A stretch of 36,004 nucleotides of DNA from an uncultured virus (IMG/VR IMGVR_UViG_3300046474_000019) (taxonomy: Duplodnaviria > Heunggongvirae > Uroviricota > Caudoviricetes), in the IMG/VR virus record IMGVR_UViG_3300046474_000019. The stretch is one strand, 5' to 3'. The notes under the pieces are model-generated. The model made no database searches. It worked only from the letters and a program-made list of their open reading frames with translations, and was not told the origin of the DNA. Shown here piece by piece: positions 3,818 through 30,894 of this stretch (position 1 is its first letter; each line of letters starts with the position of its first letter). Position numbers and translations under genes: made by a program.

Positions 3818-4387
3818 GTGAAAACTGGAAGACCAAGGGGTTTGATTCATGGCGTAGGTATTAATGATGCGAGCTACGTGACAAATGGGAAGACGGTGTG
3901 TCCGTTCTACTCAAAGTGGCGTGATATGCTGGGAAGATGTTATTCAAAAACAACCTATAGAACTTACGAAGGTTGTACTGTTTGTGACGATTGGCGTCTC
4001 TTCTCAAAATTCAAAGCTTGGATGGAAGCTCAAGATTGGGAAGGGAAGGAGCTTGACAAAGACCTGCTTATACAAGGTAATAAAGTATATTCTCCAGATA
4101 CTTGTGTGTTCGTGAGTAAAGAGGTCTACACCTTCACAACTAAATGCCAAGCCTCTAGAGGTGAGTATCCTATTGGAGTATGCCTACATAAAGAGTCTGG
4201 TAAATTTGTTGCTCAGTGCCGTGTAGATGGTAAGAAGAAGCACCTTGGTATTTTCACAACAGTAGAACAAGCTCACAACGCATGGGTTAACAAGAAGAGG
4301 GAATTGGCGATAGAATTAGCATCAAGGCAGGAAGACTGTAAAATTTCTTCTGCTATTCTCAACATCAAATATGAGGAATGGTTATGA
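3818..4387 (+). CDS. HNH homing endonuclease with AP2 domain
   Basis: GVGINDA, WRDMLGRCY, ELDKDLL...YSPDTCVFV, KKHLGIF..EQAH.AW. Confidence 0.85.
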   Translation: MKTGRPRGLIHGVGINDASYVTNGKTVCPFYSKWRDMLGRCYSKTTYRTYEGCTVCDDWRLFSKFKAWMEAQDWEGKELDKDLLIQGNKVYSPDTCVFVSKEVYTFTTKCQASRGEYPIGVCLHKESGKFVAQCRVDGKKKHLGIFTTVEQAHNAWVNKKRELAIELASRQEDCKISSAILNIKYEEWL

Positions 4388-4598: not shown

Positions 4599-5141
4599 AT
4601 GAGTAGATTTAACAATGGAGCTAGGGATTTTGATATGAACAGGTTAACACTTCATCCTTTCTACCCTATCTGGAATGCGATGGTACAACGTTGTACCAAC
4701 CCTAAATATAAGGGTTACGAAAACTATGGGGCAATCGGTATTACTTTGTGTGATGAGTGGATGCCGCCAAAAGAATCAGGATTCCTTACTTTCCTGAGGG
4801 ACATGGTGGACCCACACTTACTTCCCGGTGAGGATTACTTTCAGCCTTACTTTTCGCTTGGCAAAAGTTTGGACAGAAGATTTGGCCCGGCAGGGTATAA
4901 CCCAGAAAACTGCCGATGGGTAACGCCAGAAGTGCAGAACCTTAATAGACGGGGCGGAAGGTCTGGCAGGTTATACCCTCAAGGTGTGAAGTGGGACAAG
5001 AGGGCTAACAGGTTCTATGCATACTACATAGTCGAAGGGAAGACTGTGCCACTGGTAAGCACTGGTAACCTCTTTGAGGCTATCGCAAGGCGCCGTTCGT
5101 GGGAGTTGGCTAGATACAAAGAGCTTGGTGTTGAATCTTAA
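4599..5141 (+). CDS. HNH homing endonuclease with AP2-like C-terminus
   Basis: WNAMVQRC, NYGAIGITLCDEW, SLDR...GYNPENCRWVT...N.N, GVKWDKR. Confidence 0.85.
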   Translation: MSRFNNGARDFDMNRLTLHPFYPIWNAMVQRCTNPKYKGYENYGAIGITLCDEWMPPKESGFLTFLRDMVDPHLLPGEDYFQPYFSLGKSLDRRFGPAGYNPENCRWVTPEVQNLNRRGGRSGRLYPQGVKWDKRANRFYAYYIVEGKTVPLVSTGNLFEAIARRRSWELARYKELGVES

Positions 5142-8011: not shown

Positions 8012-8353
8012 ATGAATTGTACTATCTGGAACGCGCTTAACCAATGCTCCACAACGGGTTATGAGGTAGAACTACGCTCCCTTAACCTAGATAATGGGTT
8101 CATAGTTAAGCTTTTTCGTGACCATAAAGGCTGGCACCGTGTGGCCTTGTTTGAGAGTGACGCGCCAGACAGCGGCCTGAGTGGTGTTATCATCCAGCCA
8201 GACGGCGAAGTGTATTATAAGCAGACAGCCACCTATGCGCAGGGCAACAACTACACACGCAAACTTCAGGCTATGTTAACAGTGTGGGGCATTGAATGGC
8301 ACCGTTCAGAACTGTTAACAGAATCCGGTGCTGCCTGTTATAAAGGGCTTTAA
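8012..8353 (+). CDS. Hypothetical early protein
   Basis: ATG 8012 after AGGGG, within 7994..8353 ORF. Confidence 0.65.
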   Translation: MNCTIWNALNQCSTTGYEVELRSLNLDNGFIVKLFRDHKGWHRVALFESDAPDSGLSGVIIQPDGEVYYKQTATYAQGNNYTRKLQAMLTVWGIEWHRSELLTESGAACYKGL

Positions 8354-8394
8354 AGTGTTCTGGAAAGTATACAGAAAAGGTGTGTTCAACCCTA

Positions 8395-8422
8395 TTGACA
8401 GGGTGTTCTACCCTGCTATAAT
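8395..8422 (+). promoter_or_regulatory. sigma70 promoter
   Basis: TTGACA-16-TATAAT; CAGGGT..ACCCTG inverted repeat. Confidence 0.8.
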
Positions 8423-8484
8423 GGACGCTCAAGATGTACACGCTATGCTTGAGGATGATTATGATTTTCCTGTCACAATTACCC

Positions 8485-8513
8485 TTGACGAATGCGATTA
8501 ATTGACCTAGAAT
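8485..8513 (+). promoter_or_regulatory. sigma70 promoter
   Basis: TTGACG-17-TAGAAT. Confidence 0.65.
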
Positions 8514-8547
8514 CACCATGTAACTAACCCACAGTGAGTACAGGCAA

Positions 8548-8880
8548 ATGGCTACCATCGTTATCAAAGGCGCTTCAATCGAAAAGAAACGTGAAATCCT
8601 TGACTCTAATAAGGGCCAAATGTTCGCCGTGACGTGGCAGAAAAAGGACGGCACTAGCACACATCGCGTGCTTAAGCAATGGATGAATAAAGCCCTTGCC
8701 AGCGGTACTAATGAAGTGGTACAGGCCAATCCAGCGGCACACAACCCGGACAACTACACAGCAGCCGACCCGGACAAGATCGCAAAGGGCAATCCCTATC
8801 CTTGGGTAAACGTCACACTGTCGAAAATGTCAAGCTGCAAGGTTGGCGGTGACGAATACATTTTTGAAGATGATAAGTAG
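8548..8880 (+). CDS. SH3/WYL-like early protein, paralog of 6173..6475
   Basis: MFAVTWQKKDGTSTHR ... WVNVTLSKMSSCKVGG. Confidence 0.6.
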   Translation: MATIVIKGASIEKKREILDSNKGQMFAVTWQKKDGTSTHRVLKQWMNKALASGTNEVVQANPAAHNPDNYTAADPDKIAKGNPYPWVNVTLSKMSSCKVGGDEYIFEDDK

Positions 8881-8938
8881 CCTGAATAAACCGTCTAGGG
8901 GCGCTGATTTAATTAGAGTTTTTCTAGTGTTTTGCTAG

Positions 8939-8966
8939 TTGACATGCCCCTAACATCCTGTAGACT
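8939..8966 (+). promoter_or_regulatory. sigma70 promoter
   Basis: TTGACA-16-TAGACT. Confidence 0.65.
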
Positions 8967-9029
8967 ACGCATCACCGGGAAGGAATAAGCCAGAAAGGCA
9001 GCCACCGGCAACCATAGGAGTAGGACAGA

Positions 9030-9332
9030 TTGGGCAGTATGAATAAGGTTGTTTTGCTGTCGTTAGGAGCTGTAAAGACTTTCCGTGGCTATGACGTGAA
9101 GCTGGGGGTTGTACAGGTGTCAGACGGGGAGTTTGTCGAGCATCTAGATAGCACGTTTGCAGAAGTGGCACTCTGCAATCATAACGTAAAGCCGGGGAGC
9201 GCCTTGCAAGTGGTGGCCCCGTTCTGGTTTCAAACTCTTAAGAATGAATATCAAGAAGAGTTGCAAAGCTCGCTACGATCGCAAGTGATACAAGGTAATG
9301 ATGTTGATATAGATTTTCATTACAACATGTAA
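9030..9332 (+). CDS. Hypothetical early protein
   Basis: ORF between promoter and terminator; start may be ATG 9039. Confidence 0.6.
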   Translation: MGSMNKVVLLSLGAVKTFRGYDVKLGVVQVSDGEFVEHLDSTFAEVALCNHNVKPGSALQVVAPFWFQTLKNEYQEELQSSLRSQVIQGNDVDIDFHYNM

Positions 9333-9347
9333 GCTACACGCATGAGG

Positions 9348-9372
9348 AAAGCCCCGACAGGCGGGGCTTTTT
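9348..9372 (+). terminator. Rho-independent terminator
   Basis: AAAGCCCCG-ACAGG-CGGGGCTTTTT. Confidence 0.85.
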
Positions 9373-9401
9373 CATACCCACAAAATAAATTGAAAATTTC
9401 C

Positions 9402-9429
9402 TTGACATGGTGAACCAGCCTGCTAATCT
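9402..9429 (+). promoter_or_regulatory. sigma70 promoter of DGQHR gene
   Basis: TTGACA-16-TAATCT with A/T-rich upstream element. Confidence 0.65.
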
Positions 9430-9472
9430 CCTAATCAAGCAAGGGGAATACAGAACACCCCAGCTTGAAAGA

Positions 9473-9488
9473 TGTTCCACGTGGAACG
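9473..9488. promoter_or_regulatory. parS: parS-type palindrome (copy 1), in leader of DGQHR gene
   Basis: TGTTCCACGTGGAACG; 15/16 match to Pseudomonas parS TGTTCCACGTGGAACA. Confidence 0.75.
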
Positions 9489-9512
9489 TCTCAACGCTCT
9501 AGGAGAAATGCC

Positions 9513-10970
9513 ATGTTCATGCCAAATGAATCGCTTCCTACTCCACTCACTTCCATCGATAACCTGCTGAAAGAAGCTGACTCTCAAGTCAGACCGGAAA
9601 AGGTGTTCATTGGTCACAATCTGGGGCATCGTACCTTTATTGCCTTGATCCCAATGAAAGACTTCTACGCCATGAGTAAGGTAGCCAACGAACGTCAACC
9701 GGACGGCTCGCCAGCTACACAACGCCCACTCAATGAGGCACACGCTACAGGGTTGGCAAAATACATCCTTCGCGGTATGATCGCCGCTGCAATCGAATAC
9801 CGCCGCAACTTCAATAAGCCAGAATCGCTGGCATTGCACGAACTACAGCGTGTAATGGGGCCACAAACCTACATGAGCTTGCAGCCTATCGTGTGCAACC
9901 TTCGCACCGTTGCCCCCGGTGGAGCTGGGATTGAAGGCAAGCGGATGGAAGCGGACGGCGAAACGGCCTGCTTTAAAGTGTTCCTCGGTCAACGTGACAT
10001 GCTGTATGTGATCGATGGCCAGCACCGTCGTTATGCCATGGATTTGGTTTTCGAATTCCTGACTGAAATCAGGTTGAACCGTAAGTATCCACGTAAGCCT
10101 AAACTGTTTGAAGGTAACTTCAAGGAGCCAATCCCTACCGAAGTGCTAGCGGCATGGGACGAATGCGATGAAGTGGCAAGGGGCTTCAGCAAGATCGCTG
10201 TAGAGATTCACCTAGGGCTTGGCGTTCGGGAAGAGCAACAACTGTTCCACGACCTGAACAACCTTGCCAAGAAGGTGGAGCGCTCGCTCGCTCTGAAGTT
10301 CGACAGCGCCAACCCGGTCAACCAGTTCATACAGAACGAGCTGTTACCGCATATCCTAGATTGGGACGACGTAACGGACGGTGACCAGTCCAACTGGAGC
10401 AAGGATACAGGCCGCTGGACATTCCGCGATCTGGCAGCGACTAACGCTATCCTGTTTCTGAACAAAACCAGCATTGCCAGTGCTACGCCTGCCGATGTAG
10501 AAGAAAAATATGCTACAGCTTGCAGGGCATGGGGCGCTATCGCTAACGTTCCGGGGTTTGGCAAGCCGGGGGCAAAAGCTTATACGGTGCTGGCACAGCC
10601 TGTAGTCGTCAAAGCTGTCGCAAAACTGGTGTACGATCTGGGGTTTGGTCGTCGTCGTGATGCTACAGCCGGTGAAGACCTTGAAAGGCTTCTGCAAGGC
10701 TTGTCACAAGTCAACTTCAGCCACACCAACCCTGTATGGCGGTTTTATGAACTGACTGAACAGGACCGTATCAAGCAAAAGCTTAACGGCTTGCGTGACT
10801 ATCTGCCTGATGGTGGTGACACTAACCGGAATATCGGAACGTTCGATAGCCAGAACAAATGGATGAAATTTGGCACCCGCCATAACGACATTTACCCAAT
10901 CATTGGTGACATGATTCGCTGGATGTTGAAACTCCCAAGCCGTACCGCTGAAAAGCCAGAAGCGGCGTAA
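9513..10970 (+). CDS. DGQHR-domain protein (DndB-like, ParB/Srx-fold superfamily)
   Basis: AGGAG RBS before ATG 9513; TQRPLNEAHA..LAKYI, YVIDGQHRRYAM, EEQQLFHDLN motifs of the DndB/DGQHR family; 485 aa. Confidence 0.85.
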   Translation: MFMPNESLPTPLTSIDNLLKEADSQVRPEKVFIGHNLGHRTFIALIPMKDFYAMSKVANERQPDGSPATQRPLNEAHATGLAKYILRGMIAAAIEYRRNFNKPESLALHELQRVMGPQTYMSLQPIVCNLRTVAPGGAGIEGKRMEADGETACFKVFLGQRDMLYVIDGQHRRYAMDLVFEFLTEIRLNRKYPRKPKLFEGNFKEPIPTEVLAAWDECDEVARGFSKIAVEIHLGLGVREEQQLFHDLNNLAKKVERSLALKFDSANPVNQFIQNELLPHILDWDDVTDGDQSNWSKDTGRWTFRDLAATNAILFLNKTSIASATPADVEEKYATACRAWGAIANVPGFGKPGAKAYTVLAQPVVVKAVAKLVYDLGFGRRRDATAGEDLERLLQGLSQVNFSHTNPVWRFYELTEQDRIKQKLNGLRDYLPDGGDTNRNIGTFDSQNKWMKFGTRHNDIYPIIGDMIRWMLKLPSRTAEKPEAA

Positions 10971-10982
10971 CGCAAACCCCTT

Positions 10983-11008
10983 GCCCCGCCTAACCAGCGG
11001 GGCTTTTC
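10983..11008 (+). terminator. Rho-independent terminator
   Basis: GCCCCGC-CTAACCA-GCGGGGC-TTTT. Confidence 0.85.
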
Positions 11009-11037
11009 TCCGTCACACATTAGGCCAGGGTGATGCT

Positions 11038-11133
11038 ATGACAAGCCTTGAAAAAGCAGTGTTGGCTATCTTTGGTACGCTGTTCGTTGTGTGGGTGATA
11101 TCTATCCTCATGCTATTTTCAACATTACGTTAA
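11038..11133 (+). CDS. Small single-pass membrane peptide (31 aa)
   Basis: MTSLEKAVLAIFGTLFVVWVISILMLFSTLR, AGGGTG upstream. Confidence 0.5.
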   Translation: MTSLEKAVLAIFGTLFVVWVISILMLFSTLR

Positions 11134-11141
11134 AATGTGTG

Positions 11142-11169
11142 TTGACATGGATGTCATACCCTGTAGAAT
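11142..11169 (+). promoter_or_regulatory. sigma70 promoter with palindrome over -35
   Basis: TTGACA-16-TAGAAT; TGACAT-GG-ATGTCA. Confidence 0.7.
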
Positions 11170-11217
11170 CCACCACAAGATGTGAACAAGCCTCACAAAT
11201 CAAGAAGGAACGCTACC

Positions 11218-11538
11218 ATGGAGCAAATAATAACCGCTTTGGCCCAACTGGAAACAATCCTCAACTCTGACCCATCGGTTGAAGGGCTGCCATACAACTA
11301 TAAAATCGAATTGCAAATGGGTAAAGTATACGCCCGTATTGTTCGCCGTGAAGTGTGGCACCACAACCCAACCGAGCCCGTGAATGGCTCTGTGTATGGT
11401 TTCATCAAGCTAGAAGACCTGACCTTGTGGAAAGCAGCAGGATGGAAGGCGTCAGCCAAGAACAAGGCACGCGGCGTTCTTTCTGACCTGACAGACGCTG
11501 AAAAGGTTCTGCCTATGTGGCGTTACAGTATCAGCTAA
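11218..11538 (+). CDS. Conserved phage early hypothetical protein
   Basis: AAGGA RBS; KVYARIV...SVYGFI...KAAGWKASAKNKARG. Confidence 0.7.
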   Translation: MEQIITALAQLETILNSDPSVEGLPYNYKIELQMGKVYARIVRREVWHHNPTEPVNGSVYGFIKLEDLTLWKAAGWKASAKNKARGVLSDLTDAEKVLPMWRYSIS

Positions 11539-11557
11539 AACAATTTTATCGTATGGC

Positions 11558-11586
11558 TTGACGTCCTCAGGCCATTCTATTAAGAT
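11558..11586 (+). promoter_or_regulatory. sigma70 promoter
   Basis: TTGACG-17-TAAGAT. Confidence 0.7.
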
Positions 11587-11624
11587 TGTTTACATCGAAA
11601 CCCAACCACTAGGAATACGTCACC

Positions 11625-11996
11625 ATGAACACGAACTATAAGACTGAAGCTGTAGCAGAACTGGCCCAATCAATCAAGGCCGCTGGTTTCCGTGTGTTCA
11701 TTGCAAAGAGTGGCACTTACGGTTTCTACACTGATGAGGCTGGTAGCCGAATCGTCTCTTTCCAATTTGATTTGGGCGGCTTCAAGTTTTCCGGCAACTA
11801 TAAAACAGATCAACCACATAGCACCGGCAATGGTTGGGGTTTTGGTGAAGGTGTTGATATTTCCGCTAGCGGCTTGCGTAGTATGTTCGAATCTACACCA
11901 CCGCAATGGGCAGTGCGTGGTGCTAACTGGGAACTCACCACACTAGAACAGCACCTAAAGACCTATCAGGCATCGTCGCAATACGTCGAAGTCTAA
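11625..11996 (+). CDS. Hypothetical early protein
   Basis: 123 aa, AGGA RBS, own promoter. Confidence 0.75.
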   Translation: MNTNYKTEAVAELAQSIKAAGFRVFIAKSGTYGFYTDEAGSRIVSFQFDLGGFKFSGNYKTDQPHSTGNGWGFGEGVDISASGLRSMFESTPPQWAVRGANWELTTLEQHLKTYQASSQYVEV

Positions 11997-12004
11997 TAAA
12001 ACGC

Positions 12005-12032
12005 TTGCATGGGCTGTTCACTCTGATAGAAT
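12005..12032 (+). promoter_or_regulatory. sigma70 promoter
   Basis: TTGCAT-16-TAGAAT; imperfect GGGCTGTTC..GAATGGCCC. Confidence 0.6.
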
Positions 12033-12066
12033 GGCCCTACACAATCAACGCTCTAGGACGTTCGCC

Positions 12067-12351
12067 ATGATCACCATCACAAGCCTTACCCATCCTATAA
12101 TGATTGCAAAGATTCGTCACGGCCTACGCTGTGCTGCCTCGGGTAATGGTCATTTGCTTGGCGGACATGATAACCGTGTGTACATCCAGAATCGCAAAGG
12201 CCACAACATCATGCGAATCGACTACAAAGGCAATGGCCAGTTTGTGGCGTATGGTGGGGCAGACTGGGGCTTAACTGAAGTGACTGAGGTTGTCAAGGCT
12301 GCATTGCGTCGTGCCACAGTTCGAACAATCCTTAATAGGAGGTTGACATGA
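12067..12351 (+). CDS. Hypothetical early protein
   Basis: AGGA RBS before ATG 12067. Confidence 0.7.
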   Translation: MITITSLTHPIMIAKIRHGLRCAASGNGHLLGGHDNRVYIQNRKGHNIMRIDYKGNGQFVAYGGADWGLTEVTEVVKAALRRATVRTILNRRLT

Positions 12352-12455
12352 ACGCTAAACATTTGAAAATCTATAACACTGTACTGTCTGTAGCCTTTTT
12401 GGTTATCGCTTCAGCCGTTGTCTATCAGTTGGGTATTGCATGGCTATCACAGTGA
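12348..12455 (+). CDS. Small membrane peptide (35 aa)
   Basis: AGGAGG RBS, ATGA overlap; MNAKHLKIYNTVLSVAFLVIASAVVYQLGIAWLSQ. Confidence 0.7.
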   Translation: MNAKHLKIYNTVLSVAFLVIASAVVYQLGIAWLSQ

Positions 12456-12508
12456 CGCTAGACACACCGTAATGGCTTTTCAACGTGTGATAAATCGTTA
12501 AACAAGTG

Positions 12509-12538
12509 TTGTATAGAGCATTCGAAGCATAGTAGAAT
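12509..12538 (+). promoter_or_regulatory. sigma70 promoter with inverted repeat overlapping -10
   Basis: TTGTAT-18-TAGAAT; AGAGCATTC..GAATGCTCT. Confidence 0.55.
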
Positions 12539-12568
12539 GCTCTCACACCAACCAATGAGGCTAGGCAA

Positions 12569-12811
12569 ATGAGAAAAATACAAATCTTCACTAACGCAAA
12601 TCTTGAATCCGTCAAAGTGGCAAACATCTTTCAAACCACACCACAGCCGGGTATGGAAGCAATCCACGTGCCATCCTTCGAAGTGTCGACTACATCCGGT
12701 GGCGTGGACATTGGTTGGAAATTTGAAAGCTTCGCATTGCTTGAGGATGCCCAACAATTCGCATTACAGTTCATCATGCCTAAAGGCATGCTTTGCAAAA
12801 TAGTGGCCTAA
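12569..12811 (+). CDS. Hypothetical early protein
   Basis: 80 aa ORF after promoter. Confidence 0.7.
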   Translation: MRKIQIFTNANLESVKVANIFQTTPQPGMEAIHVPSFEVSTTSGGVDIGWKFESFALLEDAQQFALQFIMPKGMLCKIVA

Positions 12812-12824
12812 CCGAATAAACCAC

Positions 12825-12853
12825 TTGCGGGGTGTTGATTGCAGATATACAAT
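12825..12853 (+). promoter_or_regulatory. sigma70 promoter with inverted repeat around -10
   Basis: TTGCGG-17-TACAAT; TGATTGCA..TGCAATCA. Confidence 0.6.
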
Positions 12854-12886
12854 GCAATCACACCCACACACAACCGAGTGACCATC

Positions 12887-13186
12887 ATGACCAAATCCAC
12901 TTCCATTCGTTGCACTTGCTGTCAAGCTGAGCTTACCGCACCTCAGTTTTACAATGGCAAGCCTTATGGCTGGACTTGCATCAAGAAGGTTGACCCAGCT
13001 TTCAAACGCACTAAAACCGTTTATGTGGCTTGTGAAGCTTTCAAGATTGTTCAAGCTGGTAGTCGTTGTGTCGTTAACGTCAAGCTTGCTGGTAAGTGGT
13101 CACAAGTGGTGGTGTATGGTGATATCGAAACACGCACTACTTCGACCTACATGCAAGACGGTATCCTGTACGTGGTAGCTAAATAA
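12887..13186 (+). CDS. Zn-finger-like early protein
   Basis: CTCCQAELT...YGWTCIKK. Confidence 0.65.
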   Translation: MTKSTSIRCTCCQAELTAPQFYNGKPYGWTCIKKVDPAFKRTKTVYVACEAFKIVQAGSRCVVNVKLAGKWSQVVVYGDIETRTTSTYMQDGILYVVAK

Positions 13187-13260
13187 TGCTACCGCTAAAA
13201 GCGCTCTACCTGTATTCCGCTGTCATTGTTGCCCTCGGCCTTGCTTGGAGTTTTTCCTAA
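13186..13260 (+). CDS. Small membrane peptide (24 aa)
   Basis: TAATG coupling at both ends; MLPLKALYLYSAVIVALGLAWSFS. Confidence 0.55.
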   Translation: MLPLKALYLYSAVIVALGLAWSFS

Positions 13261-13544
13261 TGTACGCACTAATCCTTACCCTTTGCTCACTCGCCAACTG
13301 TAATGGCTATGTGATTGCCACTGATGATGCTTGGCAGCAACAAGCCCCATGCAATGAGACACTGTATGTTGAAAGCGACCTATTCGGAAAGGCTTTCACC
13401 TTCGACAATACAGGCAAGCTCACAGCCTTAAATAGCCAATTAGCTCAAGGCTATCTAGATCGTTTCAATGTCCGTGAGGAACTCACAACCCTGACAGATT
13501 ACGACTTCACGTGTGAGAAAGTGGCAGACAACGACATTCCATAA
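13260..13544 (+). CDS. Hypothetical exported protein
   Basis: MYALILTLCSLANC signal-like N-terminus; Cys pairs. Confidence 0.65.
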   Translation: MYALILTLCSLANCNGYVIATDDAWQQQAPCNETLYVESDLFGKAFTFDNTGKLTALNSQLAQGYLDRFNVREELTTLTDYDFTCEKVADNDIP

Positions 13545-13546
13545 CA

Positions 13547-13562
13547 CGTTCCACGTGGAACA
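13547..13562. promoter_or_regulatory. parS: parS-type palindrome (copy 2, inverted)
   Basis: CGTTCCACGTGGAACA = reverse complement of copy 1. Confidence 0.75.
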
Positions 13563-13565
13563 ATT

Positions 13566-13586
13566 GCCCGCCTTGAGCGGGCTTTC
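13566..13586 (+). terminator. Terminator ending the early + strand region
   Basis: GCCCGC-CTTGA-GCGGGC-TTTC. Confidence 0.65.
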
Positions 13587-13595
13587 GCACTGGCT

Positions 13596-13637
13596 AAAGC
13601 GTAGCTTTGAAGGTTGTATACCCGAAAGCTACGCTTT
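13596..13637. repeat. Perfect 13-bp inverted repeat
   Basis: AAAGCGTAGCTTT ... AAAGCTACGCTTT. Confidence 0.8.
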
Positions 13638-14200
13638 CAGTGTTTTGCACGGTATCAAATGCGTTAGCATTGGTTGTTTTTGTGTAATAAAACATACAAA
13701 TAACCTACAATAAACATATATGAAACCTCAAGCCTTCGGCTGTCAGCGTATCACTCAAACCTTCGGTTTAAAGGGCTCTCAAACGGCCTGTAGGCCACGT
13801 GTTACAAGGCTTAGAGCTTTGTACGACCGTTAGCATACGCTAACAAGAAAACCCCTCAGAATCGTTCTAAACCCCTTTCCTGTACACTGGTAGCGTGTGT
13901 GAGTGGGCGATAGCCTACGTTCTACTAAGCGAAGCGCTCTCACCCTGACAAATATGTCAAGCATAATCTTCAAATATATTCCTATCCAATGCGTAGCATT
14001 GATTAATACATTCAATGGGCGCACCCTCACAGGTTGGCATGATCCTAGCCTAGCATAATGCATGCCAGAATAAACACTCTGAGCTACGCTCACATCTGTA
14101 CGCACATGTCAAATATCCCTTGTGTGTTAACCAATGTTGACAGTAGTCTACGACGTGTGAGTCATTGTGTGAATGTGTTTCCTTGTGTGGTGATGCTCTA

Positions 14201-14302
14201 TATATAGTGCGTCGGAATCAAAATGGCTTGCCATTGAATGATAATCCCCTTTGCCGTGTGTCCATCCTGTTAGTGTGTCCTCTATATAGTGCGTCGGAAT
14301 CA
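14201..14302. repeat. 20-bp direct repeat (two copies)
   Basis: TATATAGTGCGTCGGAATCA at 14201-14220 and 14283-14302. Confidence 0.9.
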
Positions 14303-14310
14303 CATTGTAC

Positions 14311-14326
14311 TGTTCCACGTGGAACG
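14311..14326. promoter_or_regulatory. parS: parS-type palindrome (copy 3)
   Basis: TGTTCCACGTGGAACG. Confidence 0.75.
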
Positions 14327-14484
14327 AATTCACCCCACAGGGTAGACCCATGGGCGAGCCACCCCATAGAGTGTATGCATCATTGAGGGTACATTGATAG
14401 GTTATTTCCATTTTACGTGGCGCCAGCCTTCGGGCCTTTGTGCTTGGTTAAGTGCCTATCGTGAAGACACCAATTCCTGTAGAC

Positions 14485-14519
14485 AAAAAGAAACCCTCAC
14501 AAGGAGGGCTCTTATTTTT
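14485..14519 (-). terminator. Terminator (possibly bidirectional) ending the - strand operon
   Basis: AAAAAGAAA-CCCTC-ACAAG-GAGGG-CTCTTATTTTT. Confidence 0.6.
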
Positions 14520-14536
14520 GGGCGGGAGTTTAAACT

Positions 14537-14824
14537 TTACAAGGAAAGAAGCTTCTCGGCTGTAGCGGCGGGGATGGAGTACTTCGCAATAAGGGCTACC
14601 ATTTTCAGACGGGTGTACCCTTTATAATAGTCAGCGGCAGCCATTGGGCTGGTAAACTTTCCAAGATAATGTTGCTTGTTGTCTACGTCCGTGGTCTTTA
14701 CAAACCAATGCTTACCTGTGTAGCCAACACCCTGCTTAGAATTGTAACACTTTAACAGTTGATTAACGGCATTTGCCACACCATCCACACCAGCCGTTGG
14801 AGCTTGAACAGGGTTCATTCGCAT
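14537..14824 (-). CDS. Stand-alone AP2-like DNA-binding domain protein
   Basis: GVGYTGKHWFV...KQHYLGKFTSPMAAADYY. Confidence 0.55.
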   Translation of the reverse strand: MRMNPVQAPTAGVDGVANAVNQLLKCYNSKQGVGYTGKHWFVKTTDVDNKQHYLGKFTSPMAAADYYKGYTRLKMVALIAKYSIPAATAEKLLSL

Positions 14825-15165: not shown

Positions 15166-15362
15166 TCACACCCACAGTGCGTCGGGTGCCCTTGAGGCAT
15201 TGTACAGCCTTTAGAAGGCTTACGACATGCGTATGGAATCGCAAACTCTACTACAACTTCAATATCCATATTTGGATAGAGGTCAAGGATATGGTCTACA
15301 GCCTCTTTAGCTTCCTTCAGACCACAGCCAGCCCTTTCCCGTACACTCTTGATTGCCATCAC
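15159..15362 (-). CDS. Ribosomal protein bL12 (L7/L12) C-terminal-like protein
   Basis: AIKSVRERAGCGLKEAKEAVD resembles bL12 IKxVRxxTGLGLKEAKxxVE. Confidence 0.6.
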   Translation of the reverse strand: MMAIKSVRERAGCGLKEAKEAVDHILDLYPNMDIEVVVEFAIPYACRKPSKGCTMPQGHPTHCGCEW

Positions 15363-15622
15363 TTTCCAGATACATAGGGTGTTGGATGTGGTATCATGTG
15401 CTTCTCACTCTCGATGGCGAGTACTAAGGAGGTGAGTAACTGAAGAGCTTTCTCTTTATTGGCGTGCTGACTCCGCTCACTGTCACAGCTTACACCAATA
15501 CCAGAAGGTATATGATGCACGGTGATACCACTGGTGGTAAGTCCAACGGTCATTCCGCCAGCTCCGTGTCCAGACTGAGGGAGGTAGCTGGTGATTCGTA
15601 GATCATGTGGGTTAAGCATCAT
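15359..15622 (-). CDS. Class I release factor domain-3-like protein with GGQ->GGM
   Basis: GAGGMTVGLTTSGITVHHIPSGIGVSCDSERSQHANKEKAL vs RF [40 protein letters not shown]; GGAG RBS. Confidence 0.8.
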   Translation of the reverse strand: MMLNPHDLRITSYLPQSGHGAGGMTVGLTTSGITVHHIPSGIGVSCDSERSQHANKEKALQLLTSLVLAIESEKHMIPHPTPYVSGK

Positions 15623-15791
15623 CGTCTCCGTAGTAGAGGATTTCTTCAAACTCATTGCCAAAGTTTTCCAGCACTGCCTCATTGAACCAGCGACTAGCAC
15701 CAGCAGGACAGAGCTTTCCGCACTCAGCAAGGGCAGCATAGAAGTTATTGTACTGGGTTTTCTCTTTCAGTGCAAGCTTATGTTCTGTCAT
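15612..15791 (-). CDS. Hypothetical phage protein
   Basis: ATG 15791 (MTEHKL...), coupled to neighbours. Confidence 0.6.
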   Translation of the reverse strand: MTEHKLALKEKTQYNNFYAALAECGKLCPAGASRWFNEAVLENFGNEFEEILYYGDDDA

Positions 15792-23926: not shown

Positions 23927-25702
23927 TTACAGCGAACGTTGGCGAATCTCGTCGAGCGTTACACGTTTCAGGAACTTCCCGTCACGGTAGATCAGCTCCA
24001 GTTTGTTCTCAGGACGTTCTTCAACTTCCTGAGTGACGTTATCAGACAGCTCGAAACGTCGAGTACCATCTTCAAACTCAAACTCACCCACATACAGACG
24101 ACCTTTGGCAGACTTCTTCTTGCTGTCAGTCTTCGGGTCTTTGAAGATTGCCACTTCGTCACCATTGATGATCGAGTTGGTTGCCTTCACAGCAAAACCG
24201 AACACATCACGTGTTACACACTGGTAGGTGTAAGAACCCACGCCGAACACGACGTTTGCAGCAGCGTAGCCTTGTTCTTCCAGACGACGCAGAATCTCTT
24301 CAGCACGCTTGGTCGTAATACTGTCACCATAAATCAAACCGATGTGCGAGTCAAGCAGTTTGTGACCAGTTTCAGTGATAGTGCCACCGAAGGTTTTGTA
24401 CAGAGTGCGGATCGCACCAGCAACTACTTCGTATGGGTACACCACGTCAGTATCAATGCCGTAGCCAGTATCGGATACGCTCAAGTCATAGAACACACCA
24501 GCAATCTTGATGCAGTCTTTGCCTTTGAATTTTTCAAATCCTTTGTAGTCAATGAAATGGTAGGCATCGTTTTCACTTGCAAAGTCGATTGCTTTGCCAT
24601 CTTCACCCGCTACAGGCTTCATACCACAGATAACCAGTACAGGATCGCCAGAATCTGGACGTACTACCACTTTACCCGGTTGCAGGCCCAGTGGATCACG
24701 ACGCATGATCACTTCTTTCAGGTACGGATAACCGCGAGTCAACATACCCCAGAAGTCATAAGTGTCCGATACGTTCGACACGATACCGTTTGGCACAATG
24801 CGAGTGATCAGGTCATAAACGAACATCACCTCAGCAATCAGGCGGATTTCTTCATCAGCCTTAGCCATCTTGACGTAGATTTCACGTTGTTCTTCGCTTA
24901 CGAACTCGTACTCTTGCAGCATCAGCTCACGTTCAATCGAGATAATGTTGTTGGAAGTTACAGCGTGTTCTGTTGCTGGAACAGAGATACCGATCAAACC
25001 AGTTGCATCGTAGTAACGCTTAGCGTGACGAATAGCTGGCAGAGTATCAGTACCAACGAACTGTGTCAAGTGACCTACGCCCGAACGAGCAGCATCTTCG
25101 ATACCAGACATACCACGCATCGAGAAGTCGTGGCACATAACCGAGACAGCGAAGGCATCGTAGCAGCCAGTCAGCTTGGTGTAGTGTTCACAAATCTTGC
25201 GGTATTCACGTGCAATCGTTGCGTTGGTTGCAGTCTTCCAAGTGGTGGCAGACAGCGGAGTTTCATGGTAGTTCACCAACCAGAAGAACGCATCCAGAGT
25301 GTTGGTGACGGTCAAGACGGGAATACCCATCGGAACCAGCGAGCCTTCTGGCAGGGAGCGGAACTCCAGTGGCAGATAACCCAAGTCGTGCAGTGCAGCC
25401 ATTTGAGCCGAGGTAGGCAGGTCACGACCGAGATAACCTTGTAGGAACTCTTCGTATTCAGGGATCACTACAGCTTTTGGCTGAGAGAAGAAAGAACGTT
25501 CCCAGTTTTCGGTCAGCTCTTGAATAGCAGCCTGACCACCGACCCAAACCAGTTGGTTGTCGTAAAATGTAGTGCAGGAACGTTTATAGATTTTGTCAGT
25601 ACGTGGGGTAAGGTTGGAACCCACTTTGGAAGTACCGCGACGATACATTGGACCGTGACCCAGTTTGTAACCATCGGTAGCGAACATCATTTCAAAGAAC
25701 AT
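23927..25702 (-). CDS. Nicotinamide phosphoribosyltransferase-family enzyme (Nampt/NadV; likely NARP1 Namat)
   Basis: TDGYKLGH, HDFSMRG, SVPATEH, VSDTYD, VVRPDSGDP, LIYGDSI, FGVGS, KDPKTD.KKKSAKG. Confidence 0.92.
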   Translation of the reverse strand: MFFEMMFATDGYKLGHGPMYRRGTSKVGSNLTPRTDKIYKRSCTTFYDNQLVWVGGQAAIQELTENWERSFFSQPKAVVIPEYEEFLQGYLGRDLPTSAQMAALHDLGYLPLEFRSLPEGSLVPMGIPVLTVTNTLDAFFWLVNYHETPLSATTWKTATNATIAREYRKICEHYTKLTGCYDAFAVSVMCHDFSMRGMSGIEDAARSGVGHLTQFVGTDTLPAIRHAKRYYDATGLIGISVPATEHAVTSNNIISIERELMLQEYEFVSEEQREIYVKMAKADEEIRLIAEVMFVYDLITRIVPNGIVSNVSDTYDFWGMLTRGYPYLKEVIMRRDPLGLQPGKVVVRPDSGDPVLVICGMKPVAGEDGKAIDFASENDAYHFIDYKGFEKFKGKDCIKIAGVFYDLSVSDTGYGIDTDVVYPYEVVAGAIRTLYKTFGGTITETGHKLLDSHIGLIYGDSITTKRAEEILRRLEEQGYAAANVVFGVGSYTYQCVTRDVFGFAVKATNSIINGDEVAIFKDPKTDSKKKSAKGRLYVGEFEFEDGTRRFELSDNVTQEVEERPENKLELIYRDGKFLKRVTLDEIRQRSL

Positions 25703-26969: not shown

Positions 26970-27857
26970 TTACAGTTTAACAACAGTGAGTTTAGAATGT
27001 GCCTGTTGTGGCAACGTGTCAGTGGTGTAGACATGATCAAACTCATCAGTCAGTACACCAACCCCTTTCGAGAAGATACCGTGTGTAACGGCCAGCTCAA
27101 TGGTGTAGTCCATCTTGCCTGTGTAGTAGCCCGGAGAGACACGCTCGATGGCACCCGCCACTTCAATGAAGGTACGGCCACCGTCACAGATATCGTCCAA
27201 CACCAACAACTTACTGCCGAGCGTCTGAAGAATCTCAGGGTTGAGAATGCTCATACCCAGAATCTTACCGTCAGACAGATTACGCTTCTTGTTGCAGTAC
27301 AGAACATCCTTGGCTCCAACCAGTTTGGCGAAGTCTTCGGTCTTCTTGGTAGCACCCATATCAGGAGCAACGATTGTCCAGTTGTGCCAGTCTTGTTTGA
27401 TGCCTTTGAAGGCGTCTTTCTGCTCAATGACGAAGCAGCGGTCCAAAGCAGCCACCAGAACAGGGCTGTGAGGGTCTACAACCGTCACTGTGGAGTATTT
27501 CATCGCATTGATGAGCTGAGCCACCACCTTCACGCTCAAAGCCTCTCCAGCGTTGCATACGCGGTCCTGACGGGCATACGGGAAGTATGGGATCAACAGG
27601 TCGATGTGTGCGAACGGATAGACACGCTTCAAGGCGTCAGTCGCCATGAACATTTGCATCAGATGGTCACTGGATTGAATCTTGGCAGTGAGGGTAACAG
27701 TAATCACGCCTTGTGCTTCCGTGGTGAACGGATTGAGACTGCCAGTGTTGATGTTCACACCCACTTCGCCACCGGGAAACTTCATGGTGCTGATAGACAC
27801 ACGCTGATTTTTGTTCTGGTTCAAAGTGTAGAACAGGTTTTCGTTAAACTCGGTCAT
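26970..27857 (-). CDS. Ribose-phosphate pyrophosphokinase-family enzyme (Prs-like; likely NARP1 Adps)
   Basis: FPGGE, PYFPYARQDR, VDPHS, VAPDMGA, VLDDICDGGRTF, VTHGIFS. Confidence 0.92.
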   Translation of the reverse strand: MTEFNENLFYTLNQNKNQRVSISTMKFPGGEVGVNINTGSLNPFTTEAQGVITVTLTAKIQSSDHLMQMFMATDALKRVYPFAHIDLLIPYFPYARQDRVCNAGEALSVKVVAQLINAMKYSTVTVVDPHSPVLVAALDRCFVIEQKDAFKGIKQDWHNWTIVAPDMGATKKTEDFAKLVGAKDVLYCNKKRNLSDGKILGMSILNPEILQTLGSKLLVLDDICDGGRTFIEVAGAIERVSPGYYTGKMDYTIELAVTHGIFSKGVGVLTDEFDHVYTTDTLPQQAHSKLTVVKL

Positions 27858-27919: not shown

Positions 27920-28315
27920 TTAAATAGAAACTTGAAATGCTTTACGCATATCATCCAACGCCTCTTGAGGCACGTCATGAATATTCACTCCACCACGACG
28001 ATTCTCTACGACGATGTACGTTACACGGTGTCCATACTTCTCAGCCAGCTTCCTGTAGTTTTTCAACGACTTGGAGGTTGGGAAAACGTTGGAGACGACG
28101 ACAGGCTCACCCTCGGCCATTGTAGCTTCCGTGTCACGCAGACACTGACGATAGGCATAAGCCATACGCTGCTCAGTCCAAAGGTATTCACCTTCTTCGG
28201 TGTACAGATACTTGTCATGCTCGTAGTGATTGCAGTCCAGAGCATCTGCCAGCGACTTAGCGAAGGTGGACTTGCCAGAACCCGGCAAGCCTCTAATCAG
28301 GTAAAGCATGCTCAT
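27920..28315 (-). CDS. P-loop kinase (polynucleotide-kinase-like, AAA_33)
   Basis: IRGLPGSGKSTFA, VVVSNVF, IHDVP. Confidence 0.85.
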   Translation of the reverse strand: MSMLYLIRGLPGSGKSTFAKSLADALDCNHYEHDKYLYTEEGEYLWTEQRMAYAYRQCLRDTEATMAEGEPVVVSNVFPTSKSLKNYRKLAEKYGHRVTYIVVENRRGGVNIHDVPQEALDDMRKAFQVSI

Positions 28316-28970
28316 ACTTAGTAGTCTCCCGTCCTAAATCAAAATCTGACTGAATCTTGTCTGCAACACTCAGTACAGTCTTGCCTACAAGTTCTTTATA
28401 ATGTTCAAAGCTTTTCCACTCATCAACTACGGCACGAAGGACTTGAATTTTACCAAGCTGCCAAGCCCTGTGGGCTTCTGTGGCAGTGGCATAGACGCCA
28501 AGATGTTTATTCTTTTCTCCAGTAAAACCTTCTGACACGAAAGGTTTTGAGTAGTCGTTGACCATATCCTTACCCGGTTTCCGTTTATGCACGCCCAATG
28601 GGTAGTCACCCTTAGACCTGCGTCTGTCCGTGAACAGAACGTTTATCTTTCGTGGTATAAACGCACAAGTCTCTGGAGAGTACAGCTTATTACCCGGATA
28701 CATCATATCCTTGTCCAAGTCAAGACCTTGCCACTGTTGGGACTCCATCCAAGTTTTGAATACTGAAAATACTAACCATTCTTCACAAACTGTAGAGTCT
28801 TTATATGCTTTACTGCCAGTTCTGTTTGTGTATGCCCTGCTGTAACACCGCTCAAGCATGCCCTTCCACTTTTGATAGAATGGGCAGATAATACGCTTAC
28901 CATCTACAGTCTCTTGCGTCAAATAGTCGGAGTCGTTAATCCCAACTCCGTATATCGGCCTACGCGGCAT
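28293..28970 (-). CDS. HNH homing endonuclease with AP2-like domain
   Basis: GVGINDS, WKGMLERCY, LDKD...YSPETCAFIP..IN, GDYPLGV, HLGVY..ATEAHRAW. Confidence 0.85.
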   Translation of the reverse strand: MPRRPIYGVGINDSDYLTQETVDGKRIICPFYQKWKGMLERCYSRAYTNRTGSKAYKDSTVCEEWLVFSVFKTWMESQQWQGLDLDKDMMYPGNKLYSPETCAFIPRKINVLFTDRRRSKGDYPLGVHKRKPGKDMVNDYSKPFVSEGFTGEKNKHLGVYATATEAHRAWQLGKIQVLRAVVDEWKSFEHYKELVGKTVLSVADKIQSDFDLGRETTKYEHALPD

Positions 28971-29856
28971 TACCATTGAAGTAACCCTCCAACCAAGTTT
29001 TTCGTTCCGCTTCAGTTTTAGATTTCCAGAATTCCTCACCTTGCTTCAAAATTTCATCAAAACAGTCGTAAAATTCTTCATCCAATCGTTGGCGGAACTC
29101 TACAGGGTCTTTGAATATGCTATCAATTTTCTTATCACCAAGACGCATTAGAGCTTTCTTGCTCAGGTAGTGTGGAGATTTGATCTTCATCACAGTTTCC
29201 CGTGTAGCAGCGTCAATCACCATCCAACCTTCGTGTCTGCACTCACGCACCATATGCCAGAGCTGTCCAAACGTCCCACGGAACACTTCTGGACGCAGGG
29301 CGCCCATGATGCCTGCCATCGTATCCAAACGAGCTTCTGGAACCATTTCAAAGGTATCCATATCACGTGCACCAATAAGCCATGCACCTTCATCCTCAGC
29401 CACGATGTGTGGGTCAGATGGATCGCAGATTTCAAACAGCAGAGTGTGAACACGTGCTGTACCGCGAACGAACGATTGGTTTGGAAGCGCTTCAATGTGC
29501 TTACGAGCCAGAACAGCGAAGTCCGAATCCAGCGAGCCAGTTGTCGAAACAATCAACTCGCCATTCCAGTAACGACATGCTGCCATGAAACCGTTCACTT
29601 TACGTGGAGCGATGATTGGGGTATCCATCATCAGGTTCACGCCAGCGTTGTTCTCTTTGTAGTTGAAGACCTTGGTGAAAGGCCAGATGACCTTGGTTCC
29701 ATCGTCAGCCAGCACCATGCCACGAGCTTCTAGCAGCAGAGGATTGGTGTTCCACAGGGCTTTGTAGAACACTTCACGGGAATACTTGAAAACGGAAAGA
29801 CCGTTGTCGTAGCGCTTTTGTTTTACCAGCCCTTGGTCAATCAGTTCTTGAAACAT
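28960..29856 (-). CDS. RNA ligase (Rnl1-like)
   Basis: LEARG, FTKVFNY, motif I KVNG, TLLFEI, EGWMV, KIKSPHY. Confidence 0.85.
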   Translation of the reverse strand: MFQELIDQGLVKQKRYDNGLSVFKYSREVFYKALWNTNPLLLEARGMVLADDGTKVIWPFTKVFNYKENNAGVNLMMDTPIIAPRKVNGFMAACRYWNGELIVSTTGSLDSDFAVLARKHIEALPNQSFVRGTARVHTLLFEICDPSDPHIVAEDEGAWLIGARDMDTFEMVPEARLDTMAGIMGALRPEVFRGTFGQLWHMVRECRHEGWMVIDAATRETVMKIKSPHYLSKKALMRLGDKKIDSIFKDPVEFRQRLDEEFYDCFDEILKQGEEFWKSKTEAERKTWLEGYFNGNAA

Positions 29857-29857
29857 T

Positions 29858-30328
29858 TCAAACTCCTTTCAGTTTTCCGTAGAATTCTAGTTCAGCCGAC
29901 TCACGAGCGGCAATCGCGTCTTCCTTCTCTACAAAGAAACCAAGGCGCTTTCGCTTCTTGTTCTGGTAGATATAGGCTTCCCACTTCTCTTTCTCAGTGT
30001 TCCACATTACGCCAGCTTTTCCAGACGTGTTGTTGCTGCGGAGGCGAGTATTATACGCTTGGACACTTCTGTCAAGCTCCCAATAGCAATTATCTCGCCC
30101 GTAGCCTTTATTCACGTCCCTGCGTTCGATTGTGGCGCCTTCTGGTCGTGGCCCCATATCACCAATGAAAGAGGAAAAGTTGTGCCGCCAGTCGTGCGAC
30201 ATGACGATACCACGTTCCCCGTAATCCTTGTATTGGGCACAGCCTTCATCATAGCACCGTTTTACGATACTCGCCCACACTTGGTACTCGGCAGTATAGC
30301 GTTGACCGTGCTGCTCATACGCTTTCAT
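29858..30328 (-). CDS. HNH homing endonuclease with AP2 domain
   Basis: YGERGI, DMGPRP..TIERRDVNKGY..DNC.W, NNTSG..GV, RLGFF..KEDAIAAR. Confidence 0.88.
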   Translation of the reverse strand: MKAYEQHGQRYTAEYQVWASIVKRCYDEGCAQYKDYGERGIVMSHDWRHNFSSFIGDMGPRPEGATIERRDVNKGYGRDNCYWELDRSVQAYNTRLRSNNTSGKAGVMWNTEKEKWEAYIYQNKKRKRLGFFVEKEDAIAARESAELEFYGKLKGV

Positions 30329-30894
30329 TCCCGCTGCCCGTCGTGGTGATCAACAACAGTGAACTCCTGCTTTGCCATATGGATTTTAATCTCGGCAAGA
30401 GAGAACACTTGGCGGTCTGGATGATTATCGATGCCCACGTCCAGACGACGACCACGTGGTTTCATGCTGCCATGCGAATGACCGTGCAAATGCCATGCAC
30501 CGTGGTGTGCCTTGTTCCAAGTCTCCATTGGATAGTGGAACATACAAATCTTGGTACGCTCGACAGTGATTTCCTTGTAGTGGCAAATCTCCTTCACGTG
30601 CGGCAGGTTAGCACGCTCGATCAGTTCCCACAGACCATCTTGACAGTGGTTGCCACGGATGAACGTGATGTTGCCGTTCAGTTCCTTGATCACTTCCAGA
30701 GTCTTCTGCAAGCCTTTCGAGCCAGCGAACACGAAGTCGCCCAAGTGGTATGCGTCGTCGTACAGGCCAACACGGCTGTTCCAGCGAGTGATGATTTCCT
30801 CGCGTTGTTGCTCAAACGTCCAAGGACGACTGCAATATTCAATGATGTTTTTATGATCTACGTGCAGATCACTTGTGAACCAAACTTCACTCAT
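30325..30894 (-). CDS. Calcineurin-like metallophosphoesterase
   Basis: FTSDLH, HLGDF, RGNH, HYP, LHGHSH, DVGID. Confidence 0.9.
   Translation of the reverse strand: MSEVWFTSDLHVDHKNIIEYCSRPWTFEQQREEIITRWNSRVGLYDDAYHLGDFVFAGSKGLQKTLEVIKELNGNITFIRGNHCQDGLWELIERANLPHVKEICHYKEITVERTKICMFHYPMETWNKAHHGAWHLHGHSHGSMKPRGRRLDVGIDNHPDRQVFSLAEIKIHMAKQEFTVVDHHDGQRE

Follow-up and report, generated by a model that had tools for sequence, protein, structure and literature searches.

The locus considered here raises two questions: whether a parS site and the phage gene beside it form one system, and which protein occupies the site. In the 36,004-bp stretch of DNA analysed (the window; IMG/VR record IMGVR_UViG_3300046474_000019, 47.6% G+C), a parS palindrome lies in the 5′ leader of an orphan gene for a 485-residue protein of the DGQHR (DndB-like) type. 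An earlier note on this DNA had put the pair forward as the best candidate for an undescribed system and offered three models: a phage ParB-like clamp acting at its own parS sites and autoregulating, a gene controlled by the occupancy of host ParB, and an anti-defence factor. Positions 9300–11100 match eight phage records at 75–82% DNA identity, every one of them Pseudomonas, and another part of the window is about 80% identical to phiPsa374-like phages; by these matches the window phage is an Otagovirus-like Pseudomonas phage. The sequencing-run matches to the window DNA are metagenome contigs only, and positions 9300–14700 are uninterrupted in one rhizosphere metagenome contig.

The sites and the gene are read here as two separate things. 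With moderate confidence, it is proposed that host ParB sits on the phage parS sites and that the DGQHR protein separately acts as a dimeric DNA-binding switch gated by nucleoside triphosphate (NTP), an accessory in conflict. Within this proposal, confidence is highest for host ParB as the binder and lowest for the effect of the binding. The new element is the presence of host-type parS in the termini of virulent phages: in the literature searched (main texts), no description of host-type parS in virulent phages was found among the papers listed, some of which concerned temperate elements.

Host-type parS sites in the early region and the termini

Set against the parS reference, the 16-bp palindrome TGTTNCACGTGNAACA, the window contains three sites, all with GTTCCAC arms and a single mismatch apiece, which falls on the outermost base:

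9473–9488: parS-1, TGTTCCACGTGGAACG, in the 5′ leader of the DGQHR gene, with the ATG 24 nt downstream
13547–13562: parS-2, CGTTCCACGTGGAACA, 3 nt past the last early open reading frame (ORF) and directly before a terminator hairpin at 13566–13582
14311–14326: parS-3, TGTTCCACGTGGAACG, within the terminal-repeat equivalent described below

The leader site seen by the earlier note is canonical, but it is not the only one. At no more than one mismatch, 0.27 sites are expected, and three were reached in 0 of 100 shuffles. Half-parS heptamers number 15 in the window against 5.65 ± 2.52 expected; since the three full sites account for six of the 15, half-sites are not clearly enriched beyond them. 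The GAAC/GTTC tetramers within parS were also considered as a Dnd-related signal and rejected, being too short to carry meaning.

The palindrome recurs in related phages. A search at up to two mismatches in 15 whole related phage records (10 with the DGQHR gene and five without it), with the reversed pattern as the control, finds parS in 11 of the 15 records, and the control pattern gives 0 in all 15. Among the DGQHR-bearing relatives, ventosus has 5 sites, vB_PpS_SYP 6, UAVern 4, Ep020 5, REC 3, vB_PpuM-KoPa-4 3 and Pyxpy02 1, and Psxphi15, VCM and Kremar have 0 genome-wide; among the DGQHR-less relatives, phiPsa374 has 2, PE09, PPSC2 and PHB09 have 1 each and UNO-G1W1 has 0. About 30 sites, spread over the 11 records, match parS at 16 or 15 of the 16 positions. 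The arms are nearly all GTTCCAC or GTTTCAC; one deviant arm is present in each of four listed sites, namely the two-mismatch site of ventosus and one site each in Ep020, PPSC2 and SYP. Of the strong ParB ChIP-seq peaks in P. aeruginosa, GTTCCAC accounts for 94% and GTTTCAC for 5%, and ParB binds perfect palindromes best and one-mismatch sites slightly more weakly (available text of PMC5961200).

A different reading would take the palindromes for RNA hairpins at mRNA ends, or for sites of another phage regulator, with the likeness to parS coincidental. In an RNA fold, the leader palindrome of the window extends into a 9-bp hairpin, and sites lie in 5′ leaders or adjoin 3′ terminators, as such hairpins would. 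However, the roughly 30 near-perfect sites against no control match rule out coincidence. Moreover, the parS variants combine C at position 5 with A at position 12, which breaks the Watson–Crick pair of the stem without compensation and therefore points to half-site variation, not to RNA covariation. Sites are also found in the untranscribed-looking terminal repeat, and their positions relative to transcripts are not conserved, so that this explanation is very unlikely. To judge from their sequence, the palindromes appear to be DNA sites for a protein, of the type that host ParB binds.

The genomes of five relatives gave no match to ParB_N (PF02195; six-frame search, DGQHR genes included), to ParA-like AAA_31 or to a tyrosine integrase (0/5 each). 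Since neither ParB nor ParA of the phage is found, the host chromosomal ParB most likely occupies the sites.

The parS site is best conserved, relative to the other sites, at the terminal repeat. In REC, the two ends are identical over 548 bp (1–548 = 97885–98432), and each copy contains a parS site, at 409 and 98293. In phiPsa374, the sites at 389 and 98150 lie within the copies of an annotated 526-bp direct terminal repeat (DTR). A 544-bp DTR is reported for UNO-G1W1 (PMC11256812). The corresponding features of the window are as follows:

13928 to about 14475: putative DTR equivalent, with the physical genome end probably at about 13928
14198–14225 and 14280–14307, + strand: 28-nt direct repeat beginning CTMTATATAGTGCGTCGGAATCA, the second copy of which stops 4 nt before parS-3

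Window positions 13927–14070 align to REC 1–144, and parS-3 aligns with the REC DTR site at 409. Simultaneously, positions 13567–13970 align to phiPsa374, reaching 43 nt into its annotated DTR, and one contig of the related metagenome population X5 starts at 13928, a weak hint from a single contig of low depth. From these three observations, the segment 13928 to about 14475 is taken as the terminal-repeat equivalent, its right boundary being set solely by the length of the REC repeat. On this placement, parS-3 would stand near both ends of the virion genome, with the right end about 0.9 kb away from parS-2 and about 5 kb from parS-1. Both ventosus (39671) and UAVern (1019) have counterparts of parS-2, likewise directly behind their last early ORF. 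In UAVern and Ep020, too, the 28-nt repeat motif adjoins the parS of the terminal region; a phage promoter and a packaging signal are possible roles for it.

Some further observations concern the same regions. In the metagenome populations X2, X3 and X5, a 21-nt insertion containing a GTTCCAC half-parS follows position 14112, inside the terminal-repeat equivalent. Between the last early ORF and the putative repeat, about 370 bp (13560–13927) are non-coding and contain a 13-nt perfect inverted repeat (13596–13608/13625–13637) and recurring GCGTAGC/GCTACGC motifs. UAVern (MZ605293.1) has a perfect parS at 43120–43135, some 36 kb off the early region and the termini, the sole such outlier among the sites with at most one mismatch in the 15 records.

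The DGQHR protein, its cassette and its homologues

The order of elements given by the earlier note for the cassette, from terminator to terminator around parS-1, is confirmed, with every element present:

9342–9375, + strand: intrinsic terminator closing the preceding early gene, hairpin GCCCCG-ACAGG-CGGGGC followed by a T-run
9402–9429, + strand: putative sigma-70-like promoter, TTGACA at 9402–9407, a 16-nt spacer and TAATCT at 9424–9429
9501–9506, + strand: ribosome-binding site AGGAGA
9513–10970, + strand: orphan DGQHR (DndB-family) gene, 485 aa, ATG at 9513
10983–11003, + strand: intrinsic terminator of the cassette, −15.3 kcal/mol, with a stem conserved among relatives

The first terminator folds at −19.2 kcal/mol (z −4.87), which 0 of 200 shuffles equalled. 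The promoter has a perfect −35 and a weak −10 element; because the latter matches the consensus at just three of six positions, it is missing from the promoter scan. Across the 11 aligned phages, TTGAC and CTAnTCT of the promoter and TAGGAGA of the ribosome-binding site are unchanged (11/11). The cassette is a real monocistronic unit, and its ORF is the largest of the + strand early block, as the earlier note had also stated. It lies within a stretch (about 8344–13567) that is unalignable with phiPsa374, flanked by blocks that do align; this part of the early region is hypervariable, and the DGQHR gene forms an accessory early cassette there.

The protein matches Pfam DndB (PF14072) over residues 31–422 with 103.9 bits (cut-off 29.1; E 1.2e-29) and TIGR03187 (DGQHR) with 63.3 bits (cut-off 58.85), whereas the DndB equivalog TIGR03233 reaches 34.7 bits against a cut-off of 328. 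PF14072 presumably falls within the ParB-like clan. PADLOC gives a weak DndB match only (39.7 bits) and assigns no known defence system; the PHROG match is a family carrying no function annotation, and the ESM Atlas returns DndB-named clusters only. None of the 55 window ORFs compared with PHROGs is Dnd-like, and PAPS_reduct (DndC-type) is found in 0 of five whole genomes of relatives, in agreement with the description of the gene as an orphan without dnd genes.

Two domains are distinguished, a putative ParB/Srx-like NTPase domain (about 35–255) and a helical C-terminal domain (about 256–485) that is DndB/GmrSD-like. In 18 aligned sequences with 49–77% identity, QRPL (70–73), DGQHRR (168–173) and FHDLN (245–249) are invariant, the motif D168-G-Q-H-R172 being present in 18/18, and FG..HNDI.PI..DM.RW in the C-terminal part is invariant as well. 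The AlphaFold model (pLDDT 77.5) resembles SspE (Z 7.8), 9jfl_A (Z 6.3), PadC (Z 6.2; root-mean-square deviation 3.3, 99 residues aligned) and BrxU (Z 5.2) in the PDB, and further KorB (Z 4.8), sulfiredoxin (Z 4.5), pNOB8 ParB-N (Z 4.3) and SerK (Z 3.6). For neither the whole model nor the C-terminal one did a Foldseek search of the PDB give a match at E ≤ 0.001, and the sequence search of the PDB gave 0 matches at E ≤ 1. Modelled alone, the C-terminal domain reaches a pLDDT of 91.5 and resembles only the helical middle of BrxU (246–425; Z 5.2). No match to the helix-turn-helix (HTH) of ParB, Noc or KorB was found in this model, a missing match that is compatible with DNA binding. On the ParB fold and the DNA-binding C-terminus, which the earlier note suggested for checking, the models give coherent fold matches, all below Z 8, and no ParB-type HTH match. 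The Pfam scan gives DndB only, with no nuclease family or DUF1524 at E ≤ 1, and the ParA-binding motif LG(R/K)GL, as defined in the available text of PMC12704722, is absent from the protein sequence.

The homodimer prediction scores 0.61, compared with 0.00 for the best of three controls. Of proteins solved as one-chain pairs, 20 of 30 reach this score, and of those solved as single chains, 1 of 23. The runs have at least 66% of contacts in common and a partner pLDDT of at least 76, and the predicted interface passes through the N-domain, D168 and R172 included. Because ParB N-domain dimers are among the solved structures, likeness alone may account for the pass. For a bacterial DndB-like protein, binding of ATP and GTP has been shown (available text of PMC12704722). 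The phage protein is predicted to be a DndB/DpdB-like NTPase of the ParB/Srx fold that dimerises through its N-domain. For DndB, DpdB, canonical ParB and the GmrSD enzymes alike, defining features are missing, so that the protein is none of these; within the DGQHR/DndB superfamily, it is a new member and an uncharacterised one. In the literature searched for DGQHR or DndB-like phage proteins, no description of the 485-aa subfamily was found.

Homologues of about 485 aa are numerous, with more than 1,300 at E ≤ 1e-5 among 8,000 candidates scored, and they occur at 45–67% identity in Proteobacteria, Firmicutes, Acidobacteria, Planctomycetes and others. Across 66 bacterial homologue loci, there is no fixed neighbour gene. 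The commonest neighbours are a C5 methylase (11/65 loci) and Vsr (6/65); the others include McrBC-like, Z1/HATPase/DUF4420, CBASS, toxin-antitoxin, resolvase, AlpA, SNF2, HerA, PLD and housekeeping genes. The bacterial setting is one of defence islands and mobile elements, and the protein therefore probably serves the phage in DNA-level conflict. At three loci (L022, L025 and L066), the homologue adjoins a set of C5 methylase, HATPase_c_3, Z1 and DUF4420 genes, with Vsr in some, which looks like a restriction-type module linked to 5-methylcytosine.

Such neighbours also suit a reading in which the protein is an NTPase cofactor of DNA modification that works with an unrecognised phage or host enzyme for restriction evasion. 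The ATPase DpdB, which has the same two-domain plan, is needed by DpdA (available text of PMC10164549), and the methylase and Vsr counts point the same way. The phage side fits poorly, however: TGT/DpdA (PF01702) is found in 0/5 relatives, as is the DndC-type PAPS reductase, the gene is monocistronic between its own terminators, and the protein matches no NCBIfam DpdB or DndB equivalog. As no neighbour is conserved at the bacterial loci either, a cofactor role is quite unlikely.

Relation between the sites and the gene, and the remaining window genes

The DGQHR gene occurs in 21 phage records, corresponding to 18 distinct phages, and about 25 further phage relatives are not among the DGQHR-gene records. 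Linkage was assessed in 10 of the 18 gene-bearing and five of the roughly 25 gene-less phages. A PF14072 gene is found in 0 of the five further relatives directly tested, four of which still carry parS; the gene is not core to these phages. Together with the window, 11 DGQHR-bearing genomes can be compared, and parS abuts the gene in eight of them (four upstream, four downstream) and in none of the remaining three. The site is in the leader in 4/11 (window, ventosus, UAVern and Ep020; leader alignment), where it occupies a variable segment flanked by the conserved AATCAAGCAAGG and CTCTAGGAGA; a metagenomic relative has a leader parS too. In SYP, REC and KoPa-4, it lies between the stop codon and the terminator, and in Pyxpy02, the closest protein relative (93.8%), right after the terminator. 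In Psxphi15, VCM and Kremar, which have no parS, the protein has 86–87% identity; the leaders of these three are nearly identical to one another, so that they probably represent one lineage.

At the 66 bacterial homologue loci (908 kb), just two parS matches are present, each with two mismatches. In viral contigs, the exact parS 16-mer is present in at least 121, and at 80 loci from these no DGQHR homologue lies within 1.5 kb; the 142 largest ORFs flanking these loci contain no ParB, ParA or DndB domain. These sites are mostly inside ordinary coding genes of phages of widely differing G+C, and the scan shows only that parS occurs without DGQHR. parS is not an operator of the DGQHR gene. Since each occurs without the other in related phages, the reading of the two as one system is not supported, and the co-occurrence check across phages speaks against the pairing put forward in the earlier note. 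Of its three models, occupancy by host ParB fits best.

Host chromosomal ParB would occupy the phage parS sites once the DNA enters the cell. Bound at the terminal repeat, hence at each end of the genome, as well as in the early region next to it, it could gather the ends and the early region into a ParB complex, which would couple the phage genome to the host positioning and segregation machinery. As a side effect, a ParB roadblock may damp transcription over nearby early genes; the leader parS of the window, at about +36 to +51 of the DGQHR mRNA, would in this way damp the gene itself. Other outcomes of ParB capture are equally open, namely VirB-like counter-silencing, end protection, or titration of ParB off the host origin. 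VirB is a ParB-like protein that acts in counter-silencing. The DGQHR protein would meanwhile act in the manner of DndB or DpdB, as a dimeric, NTP-gated switch that binds DNA, and would be used against host defences or rival elements.

Several points weigh against this proposal. The presence of ParB on the phage DNA is read from the sequence identity of the sites, and the probable conflict role of the protein from the location of its homologues. The fold matches are coherent with ParB/Srx and modest, all being below Z 8. ParB clamps slide off free DNA ends; parS at about 165–385 bp from linear ends may therefore load ParB poorly, and this may last until the DNA is circularised or concatemerised. 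parS is absent in 3/10 DGQHR-bearing and 1/5 DGQHR-less relatives (UNO-G1W1); the site is dispensable, and any benefit is therefore conditional. In addition, one site abuts the gene in 8/8 genomes that have both, at three different positions (in the leader, between stop and terminator, and past the terminator), and the DGQHR-bearing genomes hold 0–6 sites compared with 0–1 unique sites in the five DGQHR-less ones. Independence does not fully account for the adjacency, and the abutting site and the higher counts hint at a functional link, which the present reading takes to be secondary. As the genomes are phylogenetically related, the adjacency counts are not independent events, only a lead.

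This lead would be explained if the DGQHR protein were itself a parS-binding, NTP-gated clamp of the ParB fold that loads at sites on either side of its gene and in the terminal region and then slides, autoregulates or organises phage DNA, perhaps competing with host ParB. The abutting sites and the higher site numbers agree with such a clamp, and the predicted symmetric dimer through the NTP-binding domain is in keeping with it, as is the autoregulation of DndB at promoter palindromes (available text of PMC4507180). The three different positions are no obstacle for a sliding clamp, as in KorB, whose loading site need not lie upstream of its target. Nevertheless, the 3/10 gene-bearing relatives without parS keep the protein at 86–87% identity, 4/5 gene-less relatives keep parS, and this version of the clamp is weakened by both. 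The bacterial loci offer no parS beyond the two two-mismatch matches, and the viral-contig loci offer no nearby homologue (0/80). The sites themselves follow the exact host ParB consensus, host half-site variants included, and the DndB site, TACG-N10-CGTA, is unlike parS. The C-terminal model, with BrxU at Z 5.2 as its best match, has no recognised ParB-type HTH, which is not a negative. A clamp with its own parS specificity is unlikely on this balance. In a variant that is similarly improbable, the protein would be a phage-made ParB-fold NTP clamp acting on host-ParB/parS complexes; it could load at parS, remodel ParB, or use ParB-coated DNA as a platform, and this would explain the parS sites beside the gene at three independent positions.

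If the proposal of host ParB on phage parS is true, host-type parS in phages without ParA, ParB and integrase represents a new use of the chromosome-segregation machinery. Possible uses of the capture are the positioning or partitioning of the phage genome, the timing of early transcription, and the protection or bridging of DNA ends. If host ParB and a phage ParB-fold partner do act together, they would form a two-part system that handles or protects incoming linear DNA. The stand-alone 485-aa DGQHR subfamily is itself large, strongly conserved, located in defence islands and without a partner. Host-type parS at virulent termini and the widespread orphan DGQHR family both merit testing, and vB_PpuM-KoPa-4 on P. 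putida KT2440 is a genetically tractable pair in which the phage has both the gene and parS.

Around the cassette, a run of small early-type genes occupies the + strand between position 1 and about 13,544. The promoter scan finds 24 sigma-70-like promoters, compared with 14.9 ± 4.2 in shuffles, many in the early block; the one at 8395–8422, with 12/12 consensus positions and an extended −10 TG, is one of many strong promoter-like sites there. From about 14,500, the genes are on the − strand and comprise HNH endonucleases, NAD salvage enzymes, RNA and DNA ligases and a dCMP deaminase (PHROGs). A nicotinamide phosphoribosyltransferase (23927–25702, − strand; PHROG E 3.8e-180) and a ribose-phosphate pyrophosphokinase (26970–27857, − strand; PHROG E 1.5e-89) look, by these matches, like a phage NAD+ salvage module. 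Such modules have been reported as a counter to NAD-depleting defences. A kinase/ATPase, an RNA ligase, a phosphoesterase and an ATP-dependent DNA ligase (27920–28315, 28960–29856, 30325–30894 and 31994–33211, − strand) constitute a tRNA/nucleic-acid repair set interrupted by HNH genes. A small ORF (15359–15739, − strand) matches an RF-1-domain (peptide chain release factor-like) PHROG, and its REC homologue is annotated as "peptide chain release factor". Eight ORFs with HNH (homing) endonuclease PHROG matches in 36 kb are unusually dense:

1175–1744, 2160–2549, 3818–4387 and 4599–5141, + strand: HNH ORFs
14537–14824, 28293–28976, 29858–30328 and 34539–35126, − strand: HNH ORFs

The ORF at 2160–2549 has further matches to Srd anti-sigma/sigma-70 decoy families. 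At gathering thresholds, no Rfam family is found in the window, and ARAGORN finds no tRNA.

Comparison with known systems

The closest structural matches are in the GmrSD/SspE/BrxU group (DUF262–DUF1524), with SspE for the whole protein and BrxU for the C-terminal domain. Compared with GmrSD and SspE, the phage protein has no detected DUF1524 (His-Me finger) and has DGQHR instead of DGQQR. The nicking motif of SspE is EHxxP; the nearest string in the phage protein is KHNDIYP, with another spacing.

DndB of Salmonella enterica, the regulator of the dndBCDE phosphorothioation operon, has the Pfam DndB domain and the DGQHR motif in common with the phage protein, and likewise the order, predicted for the phage protein, of a ParB/Srx-type N-domain and a helical domain. 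The autoregulation of DndB works through palindromes in its promoter, which it binds, and its operator differs from parS as described above (available text of PMC4507180); its activity is modulated by ATP (as cited in the available text of PMC10164549). However, the phage protein exceeds DndB by about 125 residues and has an additional, conserved beta-beta-alpha element at its C-terminus (FG..HNDI.PI..DM.RW), and DndB goes with dndCDE, whereas the relatives have no DndC-type gene (0/5) and the bacterial homologues no fixed neighbour.

DpdB, of the Dpd system for 7-deazaguanine DNA modification, is a homodimer with an N-domain of the ParB fold and a C-domain that is alpha-helical, is predicted to encircle DNA, and is a DNA-stimulated ATPase required for base exchange by DpdA (available text of PMC10164549). 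The phage protein likewise has two domains and a predicted N-domain dimer, but its motif is DGQHR, not DGQQR, and the TGT homologue DpdA that DpdB needs is absent from 5/5 phage relatives.

With ParB–parS, KorB, Noc and VirB, the phages share canonical parS sites, and the protein would have in common the NTP-binding fold, together with counterparts of Box I, II and III, an equivalence read from our own alignment against the motif description in the available text of PMC12704722. Unlike ParB, the phage protein has no ParB_N match, no LG(R/K)GL and no recognised parS-reading HTH in its C-terminal model; about 100 residues are inserted between its Boxes I and II, and ParA is not found in the relatives (0/5).

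Plasmids with parS and plasmid-prophages such as P1 and N15 have ParA and ParB of their own, whose site specificity is private, and these elements are temperate. The common feature is a mobile element that carries centromere-like ParB sites. In contrast, the Otagovirus-like phages are without ParA, ParB and integrase (0/5), their sites follow the consensus of the host chromosome, and the best-conserved site lies in the terminal repeat.

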